DNA from: a virus
Taxonomy: Duplodnaviria; Caudoviricetes
IMG/VR virus record: IMGVR_UViG_3300028914_000064
Coordinates: 32,001-96,000 of that record
Strand: one strand, 5' to 3'
DNA: 64,000 bases
The first letter of the stretch is position 1. Each line of letters opens with the position of its first letter. The notes under the pieces are model-generated. The model made no database searches and was not told where the DNA came from. It saw nothing but the letters and a program-made list of their open reading frames with translations. A program made the translations under genes and the position numbers. Shown piece after piece: positions 2,598 to 31,595 of this stretch.

Positions 2598-3839
2598 ATG
2601 GGGCGAGAAAAGACACAAGATAGTATCACTGAAATTCTTTCAAGTAAAAAATATACAAAATCTAATGCTTTGGTCAATGCGAAAGGGAAGGCTGGATTGT
2701 TAGCTGAAAAACTTTTTGCTGTAGGAATTCAACGAGCAGTTGAAGATGAAAAGACCGGCATTCTTACAACAACAATCCGAGGAATAGAACTAAAGAAAAT
2801 ATTTCAAACTAATAGAGGATCTTTTTATGCTGATGTCAGTGCTTTAGTAGATCCTCCGACGAATGATTCTCCCTCTTTACTTGATTGGAGAATCATCTAT
2901 AAGGACGATAACTCACAAACTATTGAAGCAATGAATGTTATTACGGATTGCTCTTTTAAAAAAGGTGTTTTCGAGATAAGATTTAATAGCAAGATTACTC
3001 CACAAGTAAGAAGATTACAAGCGAATTATACTGTTTTTTCACTTGCAGATACGATGCCATTAAAAAGTATCTATTCGTTTAAGCTGTATGAAATTTTAAA
3101 GTCTGAATATGATAAACAGGACTACGTAGCAAAGAAAGAAGAATCTTGGCAGCCTAATGCTGTTTATATAATGGACATGCATATAGTAGACTTAAAATTA
3201 AGAGTAGGAGTTATTGATAGTTCATGGAGTAGTGAGATATCAGAAGAACTTAGAAAATTAGAGCCAAATTATGATATTATTGAAAAGATAGTAGACGAAC
3301 AGCTAAAGAACGAAGGAGTTATTGATAAAAACAAGAAAACTTATAAAAGTTATAAGAGGATAGATAATTTTAAAAAAAATGTTCTTGATAGAGCAAGAGA
3401 TGAATTAAAAGAAAAAACGTCCATTAAGTTTGAATATAAAAATTTAACAGGTGGACCTGGAGGAAAAATAAATGGCATAAGATTTTTTATTTCTCGGAAC
3501 ACAAAAGACTCTGACAATATTGAAATTAGTGAGAATCCGAAAGAAGCTTTATCGAAAGAAGAAAAATTTGAAATACTTGATTCTATTGCTGATATTATAG
3601 GAGACTCATTCTCATACAAAGAAATCAAAATAATTGCTGAAAAATCTGAATATAATATTGAGAAAGTTAAAAGCGCTTATAATGTTATGAGACAAAGTAA
3701 AACAAGAATAGATAACCCAATAGCATGGATGATAAGTGCTATAGAAAATAATTATCAGAACAAAAATAATAGTTTCAGCAATTTTAAGCAGAACACTTAT
3801 GATTTTGCAAAATTGGAAGAGCAGCTTTTGGAAAATTAA
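2598..3839 (+). CDS. Rep_3 (RepB/RepA-type) plasmid replication initiator
   Basis: KSNALVNA, LKSIYSFKLYEILKS, FKKNVLDRARDEL, GGKINGIRF motifs; C-terminal FSNFKQNTYDFAKLEEQLL tail typical of clostridial replication proteins. Confidence 0.9.
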   Translation: MGREKTQDSITEILSSKKYTKSNALVNAKGKAGLLAEKLFAVGIQRAVEDEKTGILTTTIRGIELKKIFQTNRGSFYADVSALVDPPTNDSPSLLDWRIIYKDDNSQTIEAMNVITDCSFKKGVFEIRFNSKITPQVRRLQANYTVFSLADTMPLKSIYSFKLYEILKSEYDKQDYVAKKEESWQPNAVYIMDMHIVDLKLRVGVIDSSWSSEISEELRKLEPNYDIIEKIVDEQLKNEGVIDKNKKTYKSYKRIDNFKKNVLDRARDELKEKTSIKFEYKNLTGGPGGKINGIRFFISRNTKDSDNIEISENPKEALSKEEKFEILDSIADIIGDSFSYKEIKIIAEKSEYNIEKVKSAYNVMRQSKTRIDNPIAWMISAIENNYQNKNNSFSNFKQNTYDFAKLEEQLLEN

Positions 3840-6326: not shown

Positions 6327-6436
6327 TTGAGAAAAATGCATTATGTGTTATAATTTTACAACAAGTGGTAGCAGTACCCTTGAAGTATAAAAAGCAAATA
6401 AAAACCGCTCAACTTCGCAGGGTAGGAGCGGTTTTT
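6327..6436 (+). ncRNA. Putative type I antitoxin sRNA (promoter through terminator)
   Basis: TTGAGA-16-TATAAT with extended TG; hairpin AAAAACCGCTC...GAGCGGTTTTT; antisense to the 3' part of a small hydrophobic ORF. Confidence 0.65.
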
Positions 6437-6529
6437 ATTATTCTCTATAAATTTGAGAACAAGCTCGATAATGTTAATCAAGCAGTTAATCACTGCTACA
6501 ATAGCTGTTACTAACTTGATATAATCCAT
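6356..6529 (-). CDS. Putative type I membrane toxin (MDYIKLVTAIVAVINCLINIIELVLKFIENNKNRS...)
   Basis: Hydrophobic helix plus basic tail, SD GGGAGG, own TATAAT, convergent sRNA. Confidence 0.65.
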   Translation of the reverse strand: MDYIKLVTAIVAVINCLINIIELVLKFIENNKNRSYPAKLSGFYLLFILQGYCYHLL

Positions 6530-6910
6530 ATCGATGCCGTTCCTCCCTATCAATTACTATCAGTTGTATGCATTATATTTTTTTATTTATAATCTTTATT
6601 TTTAAATATTGTTAATAAGATAATATTTGAAAGTATTCGTATTCAATAGTTTTTATATTTTTCATATATCTTTTAGACGTTCAGTCCTCTTCTATCAAGA
6701 TAAAAATCCCATATTATAGTTTATTGAAAAGTTGTTCTTTGTAATTTTTTTTATAATAGAATTTGAGAAAACAACAAAAAAATATTAATTTTATAAAAAA
6801 AAGATATTTTTTTGTATAAAAAAGTGAATATTCTGTCATTTTAGTGTAAAATAAGAAGAACATATAAATTTTAAAGACGGAACATCAAGTTGAGACAAAA
6901 GGAGATAATT

Positions 6911-11254: not shown

Positions 11255-11292
11255 GAAATAAATTTATAAAATATATTTAATGGGAGTTACTA

Positions 11293-12459
11293 ATGATTAA
11301 ATCTATGAAAGTAATGTTACTTCCTAACAACGTTCAAAAGACAAGGCTATTCCAACACGCAGGAGCGGCAAGATTTCTTTATAATTGGGCTCTTTCAATG
11401 GAAGAAAAGAATTATAAATTAGGCGGAAAATTCATATCATATTATGAGCTTGCAAAAGAACTTACAGAGCTTAAGAGAACAGATGAATATGCATGGCTTA
11501 ACGAAATATCAATCACAACATGCCAAAAGGCTATAAAAGATGCCTGTGATGCCTATTCTAACTTTTTTAAGAAAAGGGCAAAATTTCCCAAATATAAATC
11601 AAAGGATAAGACAAAACCAAGTTTCTTTCAGACAGACCAGGTTATAGAATTTACCGATACACATGTAAAGCTAAGTTGTTTGTCCCTTAGCAGGAAGGCA
11701 AATAGAAAACAATTAAACTGGGTAAGACTTGCAGAACATGGCAAGATACCAATAAATGTAAAGCATAGCAATCCGAGGATAACTTACGATGGTCTTAATT
11801 GGTGGATAAGCGTAGGGATAGAATATCCTGATAAGAATGTAAACTTATCTGAAGAAGGATTAGGTGTTGATCTAGGAATAAGGAACCTTGCTGTGTGTTC
11901 TGATGATAGCATTTATCCTAACATCAATAAGACCAAGGCGATCAAAGATTTAGAGAAGAGAAAACGAAGATTGCAACGAAGTATATCCAGGAAATATGAG
12001 ATGAACAAAAAGGGGGATGAATTTGTAAAGACAAAAAATATAATAAAAGATGAAAAAAAGTTATTAAAGATGCACCACAGGTTGAGTAATATTAGGAAAA
12101 ACTATTTACATCATACATCAAAAGAAATAGTTGAAAAGAATCCTAAATTCATCTGTATTGACGACCTAAATATTCAGAGCATGATGAAGAATAAATACCT
12201 TGCAAAAGCAATTCAGGAACAGTCACTTTATGAATTTTCAAGGCAGCTTGAATATAAGAGTAATTTCAAAGGAATCCAATTTATAAAAGCAGACAGGAAA
12301 TTTCCATCATCTAAGAAATGCAGTCAATGTGGCAGGATAAAGAAAGATTTAAAACCTTATCAAAAGACATATAAGTGTGAGTGTGGAAATGTTATTGATG
12401 TACATAAGCAAGCGGCGCTCAATCTTAAAACATATGGAGAAGAGAATATTGCAGAATAA
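11293..12459 (+). CDS. tnpB: IS607-type TnpB / Cas12f-like RNA-guided protein with degenerate RuvC (D193, E->D290, D->H371)
   Basis: N-terminal HTH (AGAARFLYNWAL), RuvC-I GVDLG, RuvC-II ICIDDL instead of IxIEDL, Zn finger CSQC/CEC, RuvC-III IDVHKQAALNL instead of IDRDxNAAxNL. Confidence 0.92.
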   Translation: MIKSMKVMLLPNNVQKTRLFQHAGAARFLYNWALSMEEKNYKLGGKFISYYELAKELTELKRTDEYAWLNEISITTCQKAIKDACDAYSNFFKKRAKFPKYKSKDKTKPSFFQTDQVIEFTDTHVKLSCLSLSRKANRKQLNWVRLAEHGKIPINVKHSNPRITYDGLNWWISVGIEYPDKNVNLSEEGLGVDLGIRNLAVCSDDSIYPNINKTKAIKDLEKRKRRLQRSISRKYEMNKKGDEFVKTKNIIKDEKKLLKMHHRLSNIRKNYLHHTSKEIVEKNPKFICIDDLNIQSMMKNKYLAKAIQEQSLYEFSRQLEYKSNFKGIQFIKADRKFPSSKKCSQCGRIKKDLKPYQKTYKCECGNVIDVHKQAALNLKTYGEENIAE

Positions 12460-12634
12460 TATTATTGTACCGAAAGCTGGTTCGGGAATTTACGCCTATG
12501 GAGAGTACTTGAACTTGTTAGTAGACAGCACCATCGTCGAAAGCATACTCGATGAAATAGGAATGGATCATAAAAGTATATCTTTTTATAAGTATTCAGC
12601 CGGGATTTAGTCCCTTGCATCTTATGAATTTGAC
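12460..12634 (+). ncRNA. omegaRNA/reRNA-like scaffold extended by a hairpin and anti-repeat (candidate tracrRNA)
   Basis: Stems CCGAA/TTCGG, CCTAT/ATAGG, GAGTA/TACTC; loop GCTG can pair with CAGC (12597-12600); IS607-like end ...CGG; TTGCATCTTATGAATTT (12615-12631) is complementary to the repeat 3' half. Confidence 0.7.
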
Positions 12635-12934
12635 CTTTTAGAAGTATGTAAATTTGCATGGGTGTAAAGCCAGTGACTTTCTTTGCTTTGTATCCAGTAT
12701 CTTTTAGAAGTATGTAAATTTGCATGGGTGTAAAGCAGAAAAGGCTGTCAGCTACGTTAAATCCATCTTTTAGAAGTATGTAAATTTGCATGGGTGTAAA
12801 GCTTACAGACATGTCACCTTGTTCATAAAGTTCTTTTAGAAGTATGTAATTTTATATGGGTGTAAAGCAAGAAGTCACATTGAAACTATATTCGGATACT
12901 TTTAGAAGCATGTGATTTTATATGGGTGTAAAGT
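12635..12934 (+). CRISPR. CRISPR array: 5 repeats (36 nt, CTTTTAGAAGTATGTAAATTTGCATGGGTGTAAAGC) and 4 spacers (30 nt)
   Basis: Repeats start at 12635, 12701, 12767, 12833, 12899 (66-nt period). First three are identical, last two degenerate. Plus orientation inferred from degeneration polarity and G:U-compatible hairpin. Confidence 0.95.
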
Positions 12935-12957
12935 ATTGATGGCTATGTGAGGATTTC

Positions 12958-13215
12958 ATAGATGCAAAGCGTCTTTTTGAGAAAATAACTAAAAGGCGGG
13001 CAATAGATGCAAAGCCCTCTCGCTTGCTATGTAATGCGTGACTATTATGGATGCAAAGTTGAAGTGTTTCAGAGTTAAAAGAAATAAGCTTGGGAACAAA
13101 TTATTAGCAGATATTGCTTTTAGGAGCCAAAACACCAAACCTGTTATTGTATACCTCTAACAAGGCTCCTAAAAGCTTATCAAGATGCAAAGCTAGACTA
13201 TAATGGATTCAAAGT
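12958..13215 (+). repeat. Mini-repeats ATRGATGCAAAG(C/T) resembling the CRISPR repeat 3' end
   Basis: Copies at 12958, 13003, 13047 (45/44-nt period); partial copies at 13182 and 13203. Confidence 0.65.
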
Positions 13216-13248: not shown

Positions 13249-13431
13249 ATGGGGATAGAAGGACTTAAGTTAATAATATGCTTACTTAGCATAAATGTGA
13301 TGATTATAGCTTTTTTGATGTTAAAAACTATTCTATTGCAGAAACGAATGCTCAATATTATTGAAGATATTTTAAATAGACAAAAAAATATATTTAAAGA
13401 TTTTTTAGATATTGATAATGAAGGAAGTTAA
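13249..13431 (+). CDS. Small membrane protein
   Basis: SD GGAGGGG; N-terminal TM helix. Confidence 0.6.
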   Translation: MGIEGLKLIICLLSINVMIIAFLMLKTILLQKRMLNIIEDILNRQKNIFKDFLDIDNEGS

Positions 13432-16956: not shown

Positions 16957-17187
16957 TCACATTTGGTTTAAAAATGCTTGTGCTGTATTTCTATTATTGT
17001 ATATATTTCCTTCGTCTTCTATACCAATCATATAAGCACATCCCTTTTCTTCCCAAGCAATAATCATATTAGGATATACTTTTGAAATTTTAAGTTTATA
17101 GACTTTTTTTGTTTTAGTTAATTCATTATGATATGCATAATAAATTTCCATACCAGGACTATATTCTTTAGTATAATCAATATTCAT
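16957..17187 (-). CDS. Hypothetical protein
   Basis: ORF track, overlapping neighbours. Confidence 0.7.
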   Translation of the reverse strand: MNIDYTKEYSPGMEIYYAYHNELTKTKKVYKLKISKVYPNMIIAWEEKGCAYMIGIEDEGNIYNNRNTAQAFLNQM

Positions 17188-30227: not shown

Positions 30228-31595
30228 ATAATGGTAGCGTAATTTAAGACACTTTTTGAGACATTTAATAATGAATCTGATACACTCATTTTATCAATGA
30301 AAGGAATCATTACTATGTCTCGTAAAAGAAGAAATTTCACATCAGAATTCAAAGCTAAACTTGTTCTTGAGGTTCTCAAAGGAGAAAAGGAGCTCAACGT
30401 CATCGCTACCGAAAATGATATCCAGCCAAATCTCCTTAGAAACTGGAAAAGAGAGTTCCTCAATAAAGCATCATTGGTTTTTGATGATTCCCGCGAGGAT
30501 AACCTGCGAGAGAAGCTTGCTTCCGAGCGTAAAGAAAAAGAACAATACGCCAAGAAAGTCGGTCAGCTCACCATGCAGGTGGACTGGCTCAAAAAAAAAT
30601 CTGAAGAAGTTATCGGACCTGACTACGAGAGTAAATATAGTCCGAAACCATTCGAAGACTAACAATAAAGGCATCTCCGTCAGCGATGCAGCCAAGTTGT
30701 GCGGTGTTAATCGTACCAGCATTTACTATAAAGGGCATCCCGTTTCTGAAACTGAGATCATCTGCAAGAAGATAATCGACATGCTCCATACTGAAAATCC
30801 CACCTGGGGAGCAAGGCAAATGTCTGCTCAGCTTAAAGAACGCGGCTACAAGATTGGGCGCAGAAAAGCTCGCAGATTCATGACTGAGATGGCAATCGAT
30901 CCAATATATCCAAAGATGAATCTTTCTAAGCGTCAGAAGTATGCTGAGGTTGTACCATATCTACTTCGTAATGCTGATATAGAGCGTCCCAATCAGGCTT
31001 GGTCTATTGATATAACATATATTCCAATGAAGCACGGTTTCTTGTATCTGACTGCAATCATTGATTGGGCAAGCCGTTGCATTGTCGGCTGGGAGCTTGA
31101 CGATACACTTGATACCAGGGCTGTAATTGAGGCTTGTAAAAAGGCATTTAAAGTTGCTAAGCCTGAAATCTTCAACAGCGATCAAGGCTGTCAGTTTACC
31201 AGTCATGAATACAAACAGCTTTTAAAGGATAACGGCATCAAGCAGAGCATGGATGGAAAAAGCCGCTGGGCTGACAATATCATGATTGAGCGCTGGTTCC
31301 GCTCCCTCAAATGGGAAGAGGTATACCTCACTGAATATGCCAACCTGAAAGAAGCAAGGGCGGCTATTGGCAAATACATCTATAAATATAACTTTGAACG
31401 TTGTCACTCTGCTATCGGCAATGTTCCTCCTGCATCCATGTACTATCCGGCATTTCTTTACGATTATGCGCTGGAAGCTGTCGGATGTTATGCTGCATGA
31501 TATTGGTTACTGTGGGGGAGGGGCTCCCTCTCTCCCTTTAACATAGATTCATTATAAAATGACAAAAAATTTGTCTTGAAAACTAAGCCACTATA
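30227..31595 (+). mobile_element. IS3 family insertion sequence (1369 bp) with 3-bp target duplication TCA
   Basis: Imperfect ~50-bp terminal IRs (TATAATGG...AAGACA...ATAATGAATCT vs TATAGTGG...AAGACA...ATAATGAATCT); TCA at 30224-30226 and 31596-31598; higher GC. Confidence 0.92.
30315..31500 (+). CDS. IS3 transposase OrfAB via -1 frameshift at A9 (30591-30599); OrfA 30315-30662
   Basis: OrfA HTH (RRNFTSEFKAK); OrfB DDE motifs WSIDITY, NSDQGCQF, IERWFRSLK. Confidence 0.92.

Follow-up and report, generated by a model that had tools for sequence, protein, structure and literature searches.

The stretch of DNA analysed here (the window, 64,000 nucleotides (nt)) comprises bases 32001-96000 of a linear 126,091-bp virus record in IMG/VR, IMGVR_UViG_3300028914_000064, whose completeness CheckV puts at 67%. 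On its plus strand lies a gene for a TnpB-derived protein of 388 amino acids (aa), the effector, and 3' of it come a structured RNA region, a regular CRISPR array and a trailer of degenerate repeat units (Table 1). Gene, scaffold and array are conserved and found together, purifying selection acts on the first two, the spacers turn over, and two of them match phage or mobile-element DNA of foreign origin. We think it fairly probable that the phage owns in this locus a functional CRISPR module, type V-like (TranC-like), built from an IS607/RAGATH-18 TnpB without its transposon and acting mainly by binding.

An earlier reading of this stretch, which we call the original prediction, had seen in it a recently domesticated, nuclease-dead TnpB coupled to its own array. 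The open reading frame (ORF) and the residues that it named (388 aa, D193, D290, IDVH371, intact zinc finger) are all correct, as is an array of five repeats and four spacers 175 bp downstream: the first repeat starts exactly 175 nt past the stop codon.

The effector and its altered RuvC site

The effector has the TnpB domain set of helix-turn-helix (HTH), RuvC and zinc ribbon. Pfam finds HTH_OrfB_IS605 (1.5e-14), OrfB_IS605 (2.2e-14) and the Cas12f1-like TNB zinc ribbon (5.2e-13); the AlphaFold model has a predicted local distance difference test score of 79, and the fold matches PDB entries 8IAZ and 8H1J. Against the NCBIfam model guided_TnpB (NF040570) the protein scores 281.5 bits, with a cut-off of 100, and it stays below the cut-offs of IS607_TnpB (NF038280, 156 vs 350 bits) and IS200_TnpB (NF038281, 233 vs 425 bits). 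The zinc finger keeps both of its CxxC pairs, and the QAALNL helix is intact. The catalytic D-E-D triad is replaced by D193-D290-H371. D193 of RuvC-I lies within GVDLG, D290 of RuvC-II within CIDDLN where relatives have IEDLN (Glu), and H371 of RuvC-III within IDVH where relatives have IDRD (Asp). H371 aligns to the Ala of the D371A catalytic mutant in PDB 8IAZ, the mutation that Ren et al. used to obtain a catalytically dead ISFba1 TnpB complex (PMC11061315).

The effector is part of a conserved clade and not a one-off. A search of 5.8 billion proteins showed a sharp break in identity, with clade members at 78-96% to the query and all other proteins at 64% or less, mostly Lachnospira TnpBs. 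The nearest relatives outside the clade are Lachnospira TnpBs of 60-64% identity, which are intact and ordinary. (A canonical relative that is 53% identical, P0018 of 437 aa, carries a tandem duplication of about 50 aa across the RuvC-I strand, alignment columns 190-238.) The clade itself has dozens of members in metagenomes. The ORF is intact across it, save that a few of the 45 aligned sequences are shorter and may be partial.

The effector gene is under strong purifying selection. Pairwise ratios of nonsynonymous to synonymous divergence (dN/dS) within the clade are 0.04-0.10, with dS running from 0.23 to 2.8 (saturation), and the protein is 81-96% identical among sister phages, as against mostly 35-65% for its syntenic neighbours. 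Neutral decay, which the original prediction had offered as a ground for rejecting its own reading, is refuted by these ratios. The saturation of synonymous sites also means that the domestication is old; to call it recent was wrong, given synonymous divergence up to 2.8 and the dozens of metagenomic members.

These data bear directly on the least favourable view of the locus, that of a functionless, decaying insertion sequence (IS) remnant beside a chance or fossil cluster of repeats. Such a remnant would fit the lack of a transposase, the loss of the catalytic Asp and the degenerate repeats of the trailer. It does not fit the low dN/dS, an ORF kept intact across the clade, covariation in the scaffold, spacer turnover and exact matches to extant phages. 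The selection analysis refutes it, and we give it next to no weight.

Within the clade, RuvC-III has His in 43 of 45 proteins, Asn in two and Asp in none. RuvC-II reads IDDLN in 25, VENLD in 16, IENLD in two, IDNLN in one and IDNLD in one, so that the Glu has become the shorter Asp in 27 of 45 and the neighbouring residue varies between D and N. RuvC-I is present in 44 of 45. Among 98 distant relatives, RuvC-III is DRD in 97 and NRD in one, and RuvC-II is nearly always (I/V)EDLN. The alignment holds no new acidic residue near the RuvC motifs that is conserved specifically in the clade.

Double-strand cleavage has probably been lost or much weakened, judging from the replacement of the Asp that is essential in ISFba1, the Asn in two members and the drift of RuvC-II amid tight constraint elsewhere. 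With the RuvC-III Asp replaced by His (or Asn), binding would be expected over cutting. The substitutions on which the original prediction based a nuclease-dead protein are real, but a dead nuclease is only one possible reading of them. D193, the acid at position 290 and His371 are each nearly invariant in the 45 sequences, which looks like a conserved altered site and not a decaying one. This is unlike the dead relatives TldR, Cas12k and dCas12f, which lose residues or whole segments (10.1101/2023.11.30.569447; PMC13472631).

The same module might therefore contain an active nuclease, in which D193-D/E290-H371 forms a working site, perhaps Mn-dependent, nicking or slower, and the system would be an ordinary DNA-cutting TranC or type V-U. 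The near invariance of the three positions and the intact zinc finger and QAALNL helix would suit such a protein. Many TnpB branches with replaced catalytic residues probably stay active (Altae-Tran et al. 2023, PMC10691335). We nevertheless consider a cutting enzyme unlikely, though worth keeping in mind, since ISFba1 was inactivated through mutation of the equivalent Asp, Asn stands at this position in two clade members, the RuvC-II Glu has drifted together with its neighbour, and no new conserved acid has appeared near the motifs.

The D-(D/E)-H pocket may also be kept for another step, such as processing of precursor CRISPR RNA (pre-crRNA) or of the scaffold. Cas12c is reported to process its pre-crRNA through its RuvC site. 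TnpB processes its own omegaRNA (PMC10278001). In our model, the conserved pocket may serve either RNA processing or a weak or altered cleavage.

The scaffold RNA, the array and its trailer

Nine clade loci come with downstream DNA: the window and those that we label L006, L007, L008, L148, L149/L150, L152, L154 and L169. Apart from the window, three of them are IMG/VR phages and five are ENA or Logan contigs. In all nine, repeats of one family come directly after a RAGATH-18 scaffold, the spacers differing, so that the family lies 3' of the same gene in eight loci besides the window. The original prediction would have fallen if homologs never co-occurred with arrays; RuvC substitutions and array are found together in nine of nine loci. 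Relatives with an intact triad (IEDLN/IDRD, at most 64% identity) have no array; their scaffold ends in ...GTAACGG, and the next gene is no more than about 250 bp away.

The 175-nt intergenic region is 86-98% identical across the nine loci, whose synonymous sites are saturated. RNAalifold predicts 41 pairs for the scaffold, six with compensatory double changes and almost none broken, and the scaffold is under purifying selection. Its core is a RAGATH-18 motif (RF03064) that scores 64.4 bits, where the gathering score is 44.9 (E 1e-11 to 1e-12). Each of the eight sister loci that were scanned exceeds the gathering score too, as do two canonical relatives. By analogy with ISFba1, the 5' end of the scaffold probably lies inside the 3' end of the ORF. 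The RAGATH-18 motif, a fixed syntenic place in a phage lineage and an array that is always 3' of the gene bear out the proposal of a domesticated, transposase-less IS607-type TnpB.

The 3' end of the scaffold differs from that of canonical relatives. A small hairpin occupies the spot where their scaffold ends (...GTAACGG) and their guide begins, and after it comes an 8-mer, TTGCATCT in DNA and UUGCAUCU in RNA (12616-12623), that is invariant in the nine loci. In 54 of 71 repeat units, the 8 nt that immediately precede AGC pair with this 8-mer at eight of eight positions (Watson-Crick or G-U), a count in which the choice of units is partly circular. The mini-repeat AGATGCAA (AGAUGCAA in RNA) pairs with it perfectly. 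We regard the segment that contains it as a candidate anti-repeat.

Table 1. Features of the locus in window coordinates
Feature	Position	Strand	Basis or details
3'-end remnant of XRE-type HTH gene (...MGVxxD-stop)	11280..11296	+	Comparison with sister loci
tnpB-derived effector gene, 388 aa (P0001)	11293..12459	+	Pfam, NCBIfam, phmmer, Foldseek
Scaffold derived from omegaRNA, or right-end RNA (reRNA), candidate trans-activating CRISPR RNA (tracrRNA), with array leader	12460..12634	+	Conservation, RNAalifold
RAGATH-18 motif, scaffold core	12495..12563	+	Rfam RF03064
Small hairpin GGGAU-UUA-GUCCC	12602..12614	+	Stem GGGA/UCCC invariant, loop varies (GUAA, GAAA, UUUA)
Candidate anti-repeat TTGCATCTT	12615..12623	+	Pairing with repeat 3' end
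Leader end AATTTGAC, abutting repeat start CTTT	12627..12634	+	Likeness to II-A junction ATTTGAG/GTTT
Regular CRISPR array	12635..12934	+	Five 36-nt repeats, 66-nt period, four 30-nt spacers
Repeats	12635-12670, 12701-12736, 12767-12802, 12833-12868, 12899-12934	+	
Spacers 1-4	12671-12700, 12737-12766, 12803-12832, 12869-12898	+	
Spacer 2	12737..12766	+	30/30 to IMGVR_UViG_3300033463_000266, 17044-17073, 5' flank ...TTTAA
Spacer 3	12803..12832	+	30/30 to 4.8-kb JGI contig Ga0265301_10025732, 5' flank ...TTTAT
Trailer of degenerate units keeping repeat 3' end only, (A/G)GAT(G/T)CAAAG(C/T)	12935..13215	+	

The array is not a chance feature. The repeat has an inner hairpin (AUGUA...UGCAU), in which an A-U pair has become U-A in L148 and L154 with pairing kept. 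A scan of 185,579 species genomes found no array of such repeats (only 110 single chance matches), and in IMG/VR arrays were found in the sister phages only.

The array runs into a trailer of about 280 nt whose units, ending at 12970, 13015, 13059, 13193 and 13215, retain the last 10-13 nt of the repeat and are 22-134 nt long (up to 149 nt in sisters). Between distant sisters, conservation of the trailer is limited to these 3' handles and a terminal hairpin unit. In that unit, the fourth, 13116-13128 pairs with 13164-13176, and the 5' arm is the 5' half of the repeat (GCTTTTAGGAGCC). The stem covaries between phages, GGAGCC/GGCTCC in some and GAAGCTTG/CAAGCTTC in others, while the loop keeps ACACCAAAC and TTATCAAGATGCAAAGC follows. 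This hairpin may act as a terminator or processing signal, or may be a repeat:anti-repeat that is built in. What survives in the trailer is the end of the repeat that adjoins the next spacer, which suits an effector of TnpB/Cas12 type, with scaffold 5' and guide 3', and is the opposite of what Cas9 would need.

Sister L169, whose effector is 96% identical, has the same trailer units as the window, nearly base for base, and none of the regular spacers. L006 and L008 have one spacer in common, at different depths. From these two comparisons, change is concentrated at the effector-proximal (leader) end.

The repeat resembles that of type II-A systems. It is identical to the S. pyogenes II-A repeat at 23 of 36 ungapped positions, a value reached by 0 of 20,000 shuffles (P<5e-5), and the leader-repeat junction ATTTGAC/CTTT agrees at 9 of 11 positions with the group-1 consensus ATTTGAG/GTTT, the junction that anchors II-A leaders (Van Orden et al. 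2017, PMC5382924). These likenesses, taken with a geometry of 36/30 and turnover on the leader side, suggest that a II-A locus may be where the array was captured, as against growth from omegaRNA. Capture is one of two routes named by Altae-Tran et al. (PMC10691335). Birth of the repeat from the omegaRNA 3' end was considered and set aside: the first 12 nt of the repeat resemble the last scaffold stem at 11 of 12 positions, which is not significant (P=0.15). A loose pattern search for host II-A arrays with a related repeat gave only single matches at control level in 401 Lachnospiraceae genomes, a family that may differ from that of the host.

If the array is of II-A descent, it may even still be loaded by the II-A adaptation module of the host. 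The locus would then be a chimera, in which a phage effector that is only some 40% diverged from active IS607 TnpBs, and still has its RAGATH-18 RNA as a tracrRNA, reads a II-A-descended array, the host II-A Cas1-Cas2(-Csn2/Cas9) supplies the spacers, and D-(D/E)-H is not dead but altered, its activity being RNA processing or nicking. We hold this full scenario to be doubtful. If true, a Cas12-type system would have arisen by capture of a foreign array and not by omegaRNA duplication.

The same likeness raises another explanation: an orphan II-A array read by a host Cas9 and tracrRNA, next to a TnpB relative that acts as a TldR-like regulator with one fixed guide (about 20 nt after ...TTCAGCCGG). 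The repeat identity, the junction, the 36/30 geometry and the leader-side turnover are all as this account would have them, and the scaffold end CAGCCGG resembles the canonical end CAGTAACGG. The trailer, however, loses the 5' half of the repeat, the part that pairs in Cas9/tracrRNA systems, and keeps the 3' end. The two known protospacers share a 5' motif and no 3' protospacer-adjacent motif, no such repeat array occurs in the species genomes and no II-A-like array in the Lachnospiraceae genomes, and gene and array have stayed side by side in nine loci despite saturated dS. As to the fixed guide, a search of the 126-kb record at up to four mismatches gave no second copy of the putative sequence, on which ground we reject it; the sequence also forms a hairpin that is conserved. 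The explanation as a whole appears highly unlikely.

Spacer targets and possible mode of action

Two of the four spacers match DNA of other origin at all 30 positions. Spacer 2 matches an HNH-endonuclease gene in the Sak/NinB/RusA/O-like early (recombination/replication) module of a complete phage of 45,060 bp. This phage is otherwise unrelated; its only other match to the record studied here is a stretch of 96 bp. Spacer 3 matches a metagenome contig on which no array lies near the protospacer. On the spacer-sense strand, both protospacers have TTTA at -5 to -2, and their 3' flanks agree at 0 of 8 positions. A T-rich 5' motif, approximately TTTAN, is therefore suggested as the transposon-adjacent motif (TAM). 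The TAM of ISFba1 is AGGAG/GAGGG (PMC11061315), as against the TTTAA and TTTAT seen here (n=2). The TAM-contacting K83 of ISFba1 aligns to Q78 of the effector, and a K to Q change at a contact position would fit the different motif. Perfect matches to phage protospacers fit defence by cutting as well as by binding.

Other searches for targets were negative. The 40 spacers of seven arrays gave only chance matches of 13-18 nt in BLAST comparisons with the 126-kb record and the loci collected for comparison, the window array had no match at E<=0.001 in the 401 sampled Lachnospiraceae genomes, and spacers of four arrays had no significant match among GenBank phages and PLSDB plasmids. In exact 22-mer scans, spacers 1 and 4 of the window and spacer 1 of L148 had no match, and spacer 1 of L006 matched its own array only. 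A repeat-like match of 41 nt in a "Listeria phage" record was dismissed as chance, as it lies inside a flagellar-switch-type coding region. The original prediction had the guides aimed at host genes or competing mobile elements: the first target class found no match in the Lachnospiraceae set, and foreign phage or mobile DNA is what spacers 2 and 3 hit.

In the model that we favour, the effector would bind the omegaRNA-derived scaffold, now a tracrRNA-like partner, and would be guided by units supplied by the downstream array, each made up of a repeat 3' end and a spacer. The last 11 nt or so of the repeat (...RGRUGYAA-AGC) would dock on the scaffold, most likely on its invariant UUGCAUCU tail. 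The complex would recognise double-stranded DNA of competing phages beside the T-rich 5' motif, and interference would come mainly from tight binding that blocks transcription or replication, as with Cas12m, Cas12c and TldR.

Several points weigh against this model. The phage record is only 67% complete. Because the repeat is II-A-like, another effector could in principle read the array. The TAM is based on two protospacers. As for docking, a long repeat:anti-repeat duplex is not apparent, RNAduplex energies being no better than those of shuffled repeats (z -2.1 to +1.3), and RNAalifold gives a competing partner for the same scaffold 8-mer. With the partly circular choice of units, these two results are the reason why the anti-repeat stays a candidate. 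(The best repeat:scaffold duplex in the window was rejected, since it would break the covarying P1 stem of RAGATH-18.) Finally, the clade shows hardly any variation at D193, at the acid of position 290 or at His371. Histidine is a metal ligand, and catalytic, in other RNase-H-fold nucleases (Argonaute DEDH, Cas9, T. thermophilus RuvC); with such precedents, cleavage by a conserved D-(D/E)-H site may persist.

The phage setting and related systems

The record is a genuine tailed phage, large and of gut type. It encodes a large terminase, a portal, an endolysin, a tail fibre and a tyrosine integrase, along with a C5 methylase and proteins of replication (Rep_3 initiator, PolIII alpha subunit, DnaB-like helicase). 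The original prediction had called it a phage-plasmid. The phage half of that name is confirmed by the terminase, portal, endolysin, tail fibre and integrase; the plasmid half is suggested by Rep_3 alone, a plasmid-type replication initiator with WH1 and WH2 (window 2598-3839), which is the sole support seen for such a lifestyle. The absence of tnpA upstream of the gene, and of cas1 and cas2 in the window, as noted earlier, extends to the whole 126-kb record, in which no Y1 TnpA or serine-recombinase TnpA and no Cas1, Cas2 or Cas9 was found.

The effector gene is a single copy, in syntenic position in sister phages, and the small genes that flank it have homologues in the same order there. Immediately upstream, seven of nine loci (L006, L007, L008, L148, L152, L153 and L169) encode an HTH_3 protein whose gene overlaps the ATG of the effector. 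The protein has 109 aa, or 304 aa with an N-terminal extension, and ends in ...IMGVN(D/N)D (L169:5094-6008, L148:592-921, L152:3682-4011, L153:3679-4008). The gene has been lost in the window and in L149; the window retains its last 17 nt or so, and a ribosome-binding site, GGGAG, lies at 11282-11286, 5' of the effector ORF. The overlap suggests translational coupling, and the XRE protein may be a regulator or partner of the effector system.

Downstream of the array, a membrane-type ORF of 60 aa (window 13249-13431) is conserved in L006 and L007. A sigma-70-like promoter match, TTATCA-16-TATAAT (10/12), lies just 5' of it at window 13177-13204 and overlaps the last mini-repeat; a scan of the locus for promoters and terminators was overall at shuffle (chance) level. 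Sister phages also share some 135 nt of conserved sequence (window 6431-6569, on the minus strand; L169:8477-8615, L006:6918-7056, L007:6770-6908), with three near-identical nucleotide copies in the sisters and 86-98% tblastx identity to the window in several frames, although proteins of these phages are mostly 35-65% identical. It codes for a hydrophobic peptide of about 32 aa (MDYIKLV...), after which comes a strong terminator hairpin. The arrangement recalls a type I toxin or small membrane peptide, and there is no Rfam or tRNA match. In the sisters the stretch lies just 3' of the array, and in the window 4.7 kb upstream in opposite orientation.

Elsewhere, the phage genome carries an IS3-family (rve) transposase (window 30361-31500) and, outside the window, an ORF of 3,168 aa (L170:3675-13181). 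Upstream of the window it also has a second, unrelated TnpB of 396 aa (L170:13761-14951, or G000:C1:13761-14951). This protein is 27% identical to the effector, its VESLN and IDRD motifs are intact, and a structured tail lies downstream of it. It is probably an ordinary IS605/IS1341-type insertion.

Among proteins of solved structure, ISFba1 TnpB (PDB 8IAZ; Ren et al. 2024, PMC11061315) is the best relative of the effector (phmmer E 8.6e-70; Foldseek E 5.9e-31, template modelling (TM) score 0.58). The two share their size (387 vs 388 aa), three domains and a RAGATH-18 scaffold 3' of the gene, with 34% identity in the structural alignment. The effector differs from ISFba1 in its RuvC-III His and RuvC-II Asp and in lacking a transposon context. 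No TnpA is nearby, the gene is single copy, and the scaffold is followed by leader and array and not by a variable flank. The scaffold 3' end has been rebuilt (hairpin and UUGCAUCU tail), and the guide would come from the array instead of the flank.

In layout the locus is like TranC and type V-U, a TnpB-sized RuvC protein with a conserved downstream array in nine of nine loci and no Cas1 or Cas2 in the record. Type V-U and TranC comprise TnpB-sized effectors with arrays and without adaptation genes, and include IS607-derived lineages (PMC10691335; 10.64898/2026.03.27.714800). The effectors of TranC (Jin et al. 2025) are likewise TnpB-sized and of IS605/IS607 lineage, with a downstream array and no adaptation genes. 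Their arrays are short, with 3-20 repeats of 32-38 nt, and there is a phage-borne example with phage-matching spacers, CauTranC9 (10.64898/2026.03.27.714800; PMC13565253). The TranCs described so far are active nucleases, and the follow-up screen required D-E-D (10.64898/2026.03.27.714800), unlike the D-(D/E)-H of the clade. It had been foreseen that CRISPR classifiers would miss such a protein; indeed, published screens demanding an intact D-E-D would have dropped the clade (10.64898/2026.03.27.714800). LaTranC (PDB 9JFO/9JFQ) is only distantly related to the effector (E 3.7e-11 over 118 residues).

TldRs (Wiegand et al. 2024; 10.1101/2023.11.30.569447) resemble the effector as TnpBs outside a transposon, with a changed RuvC and a retained omegaRNA-like scaffold, and are often phage-encoded. 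They use one adjacent guide directed to a host promoter, however, and many lack the C-terminal zinc finger and RuvC-III. The effector is full length, its guides would come from an array that turns over, and its known targets are foreign phage or mobile-element DNA. Cas12m and Cas12c (PMC10691335), and the CRISPR-linked dCas12f cluster (Hoffmann et al. 2026, PMC13472631), are array-linked, have an impaired RuvC and lack adaptation genes, and by analogy the effector likely shares their mode of action, binding rather than cutting. Its lineage is independent of Cas12m: the PDB sequence search gave no Cas12m match, and Cas12m2 structures appear in Foldseek at E ~1e-8, with 8-10% identity and a TM score of ~0.35-0.5, at rank 29 or lower. 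Whereas dCas12f is C-terminally truncated (PMC13472631), the effector has point substitutions only. Finally, the array is like II-A arrays in its 36-nt repeat, 30-nt spacers, a repeat that ends in C and leader-side spacer gain, and unlike them in a repeat that starts with C and not G, a conserved repeat 3' end, a 5' protospacer motif and a record without cas9, cas1 or cas2.

How a TnpB becomes a CRISPR effector is an active question since the TranC work of 2025, and the clade offers an unusually early snapshot. It is still near working IS607 TnpBs with RAGATH-18 RNA, yet it is immobile, array-fed and aimed at rival phages. The locus looks like a young, phage-owned CRISPR-like weapon against such rivals. 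A compact protein of 388 aa with a probable short T-rich TAM may also prove to bind DNA by nature, or to be a nuclease whose catalytic site includes a His. Each ingredient has a precedent. What appears to be new is the lineage and the combination: a full-length protein with point substitutions, 60-64% identical to active TnpBs, with RAGATH-18, D-(D/E)-H and a II-A-like array, in a fixed place in a family of large phages.

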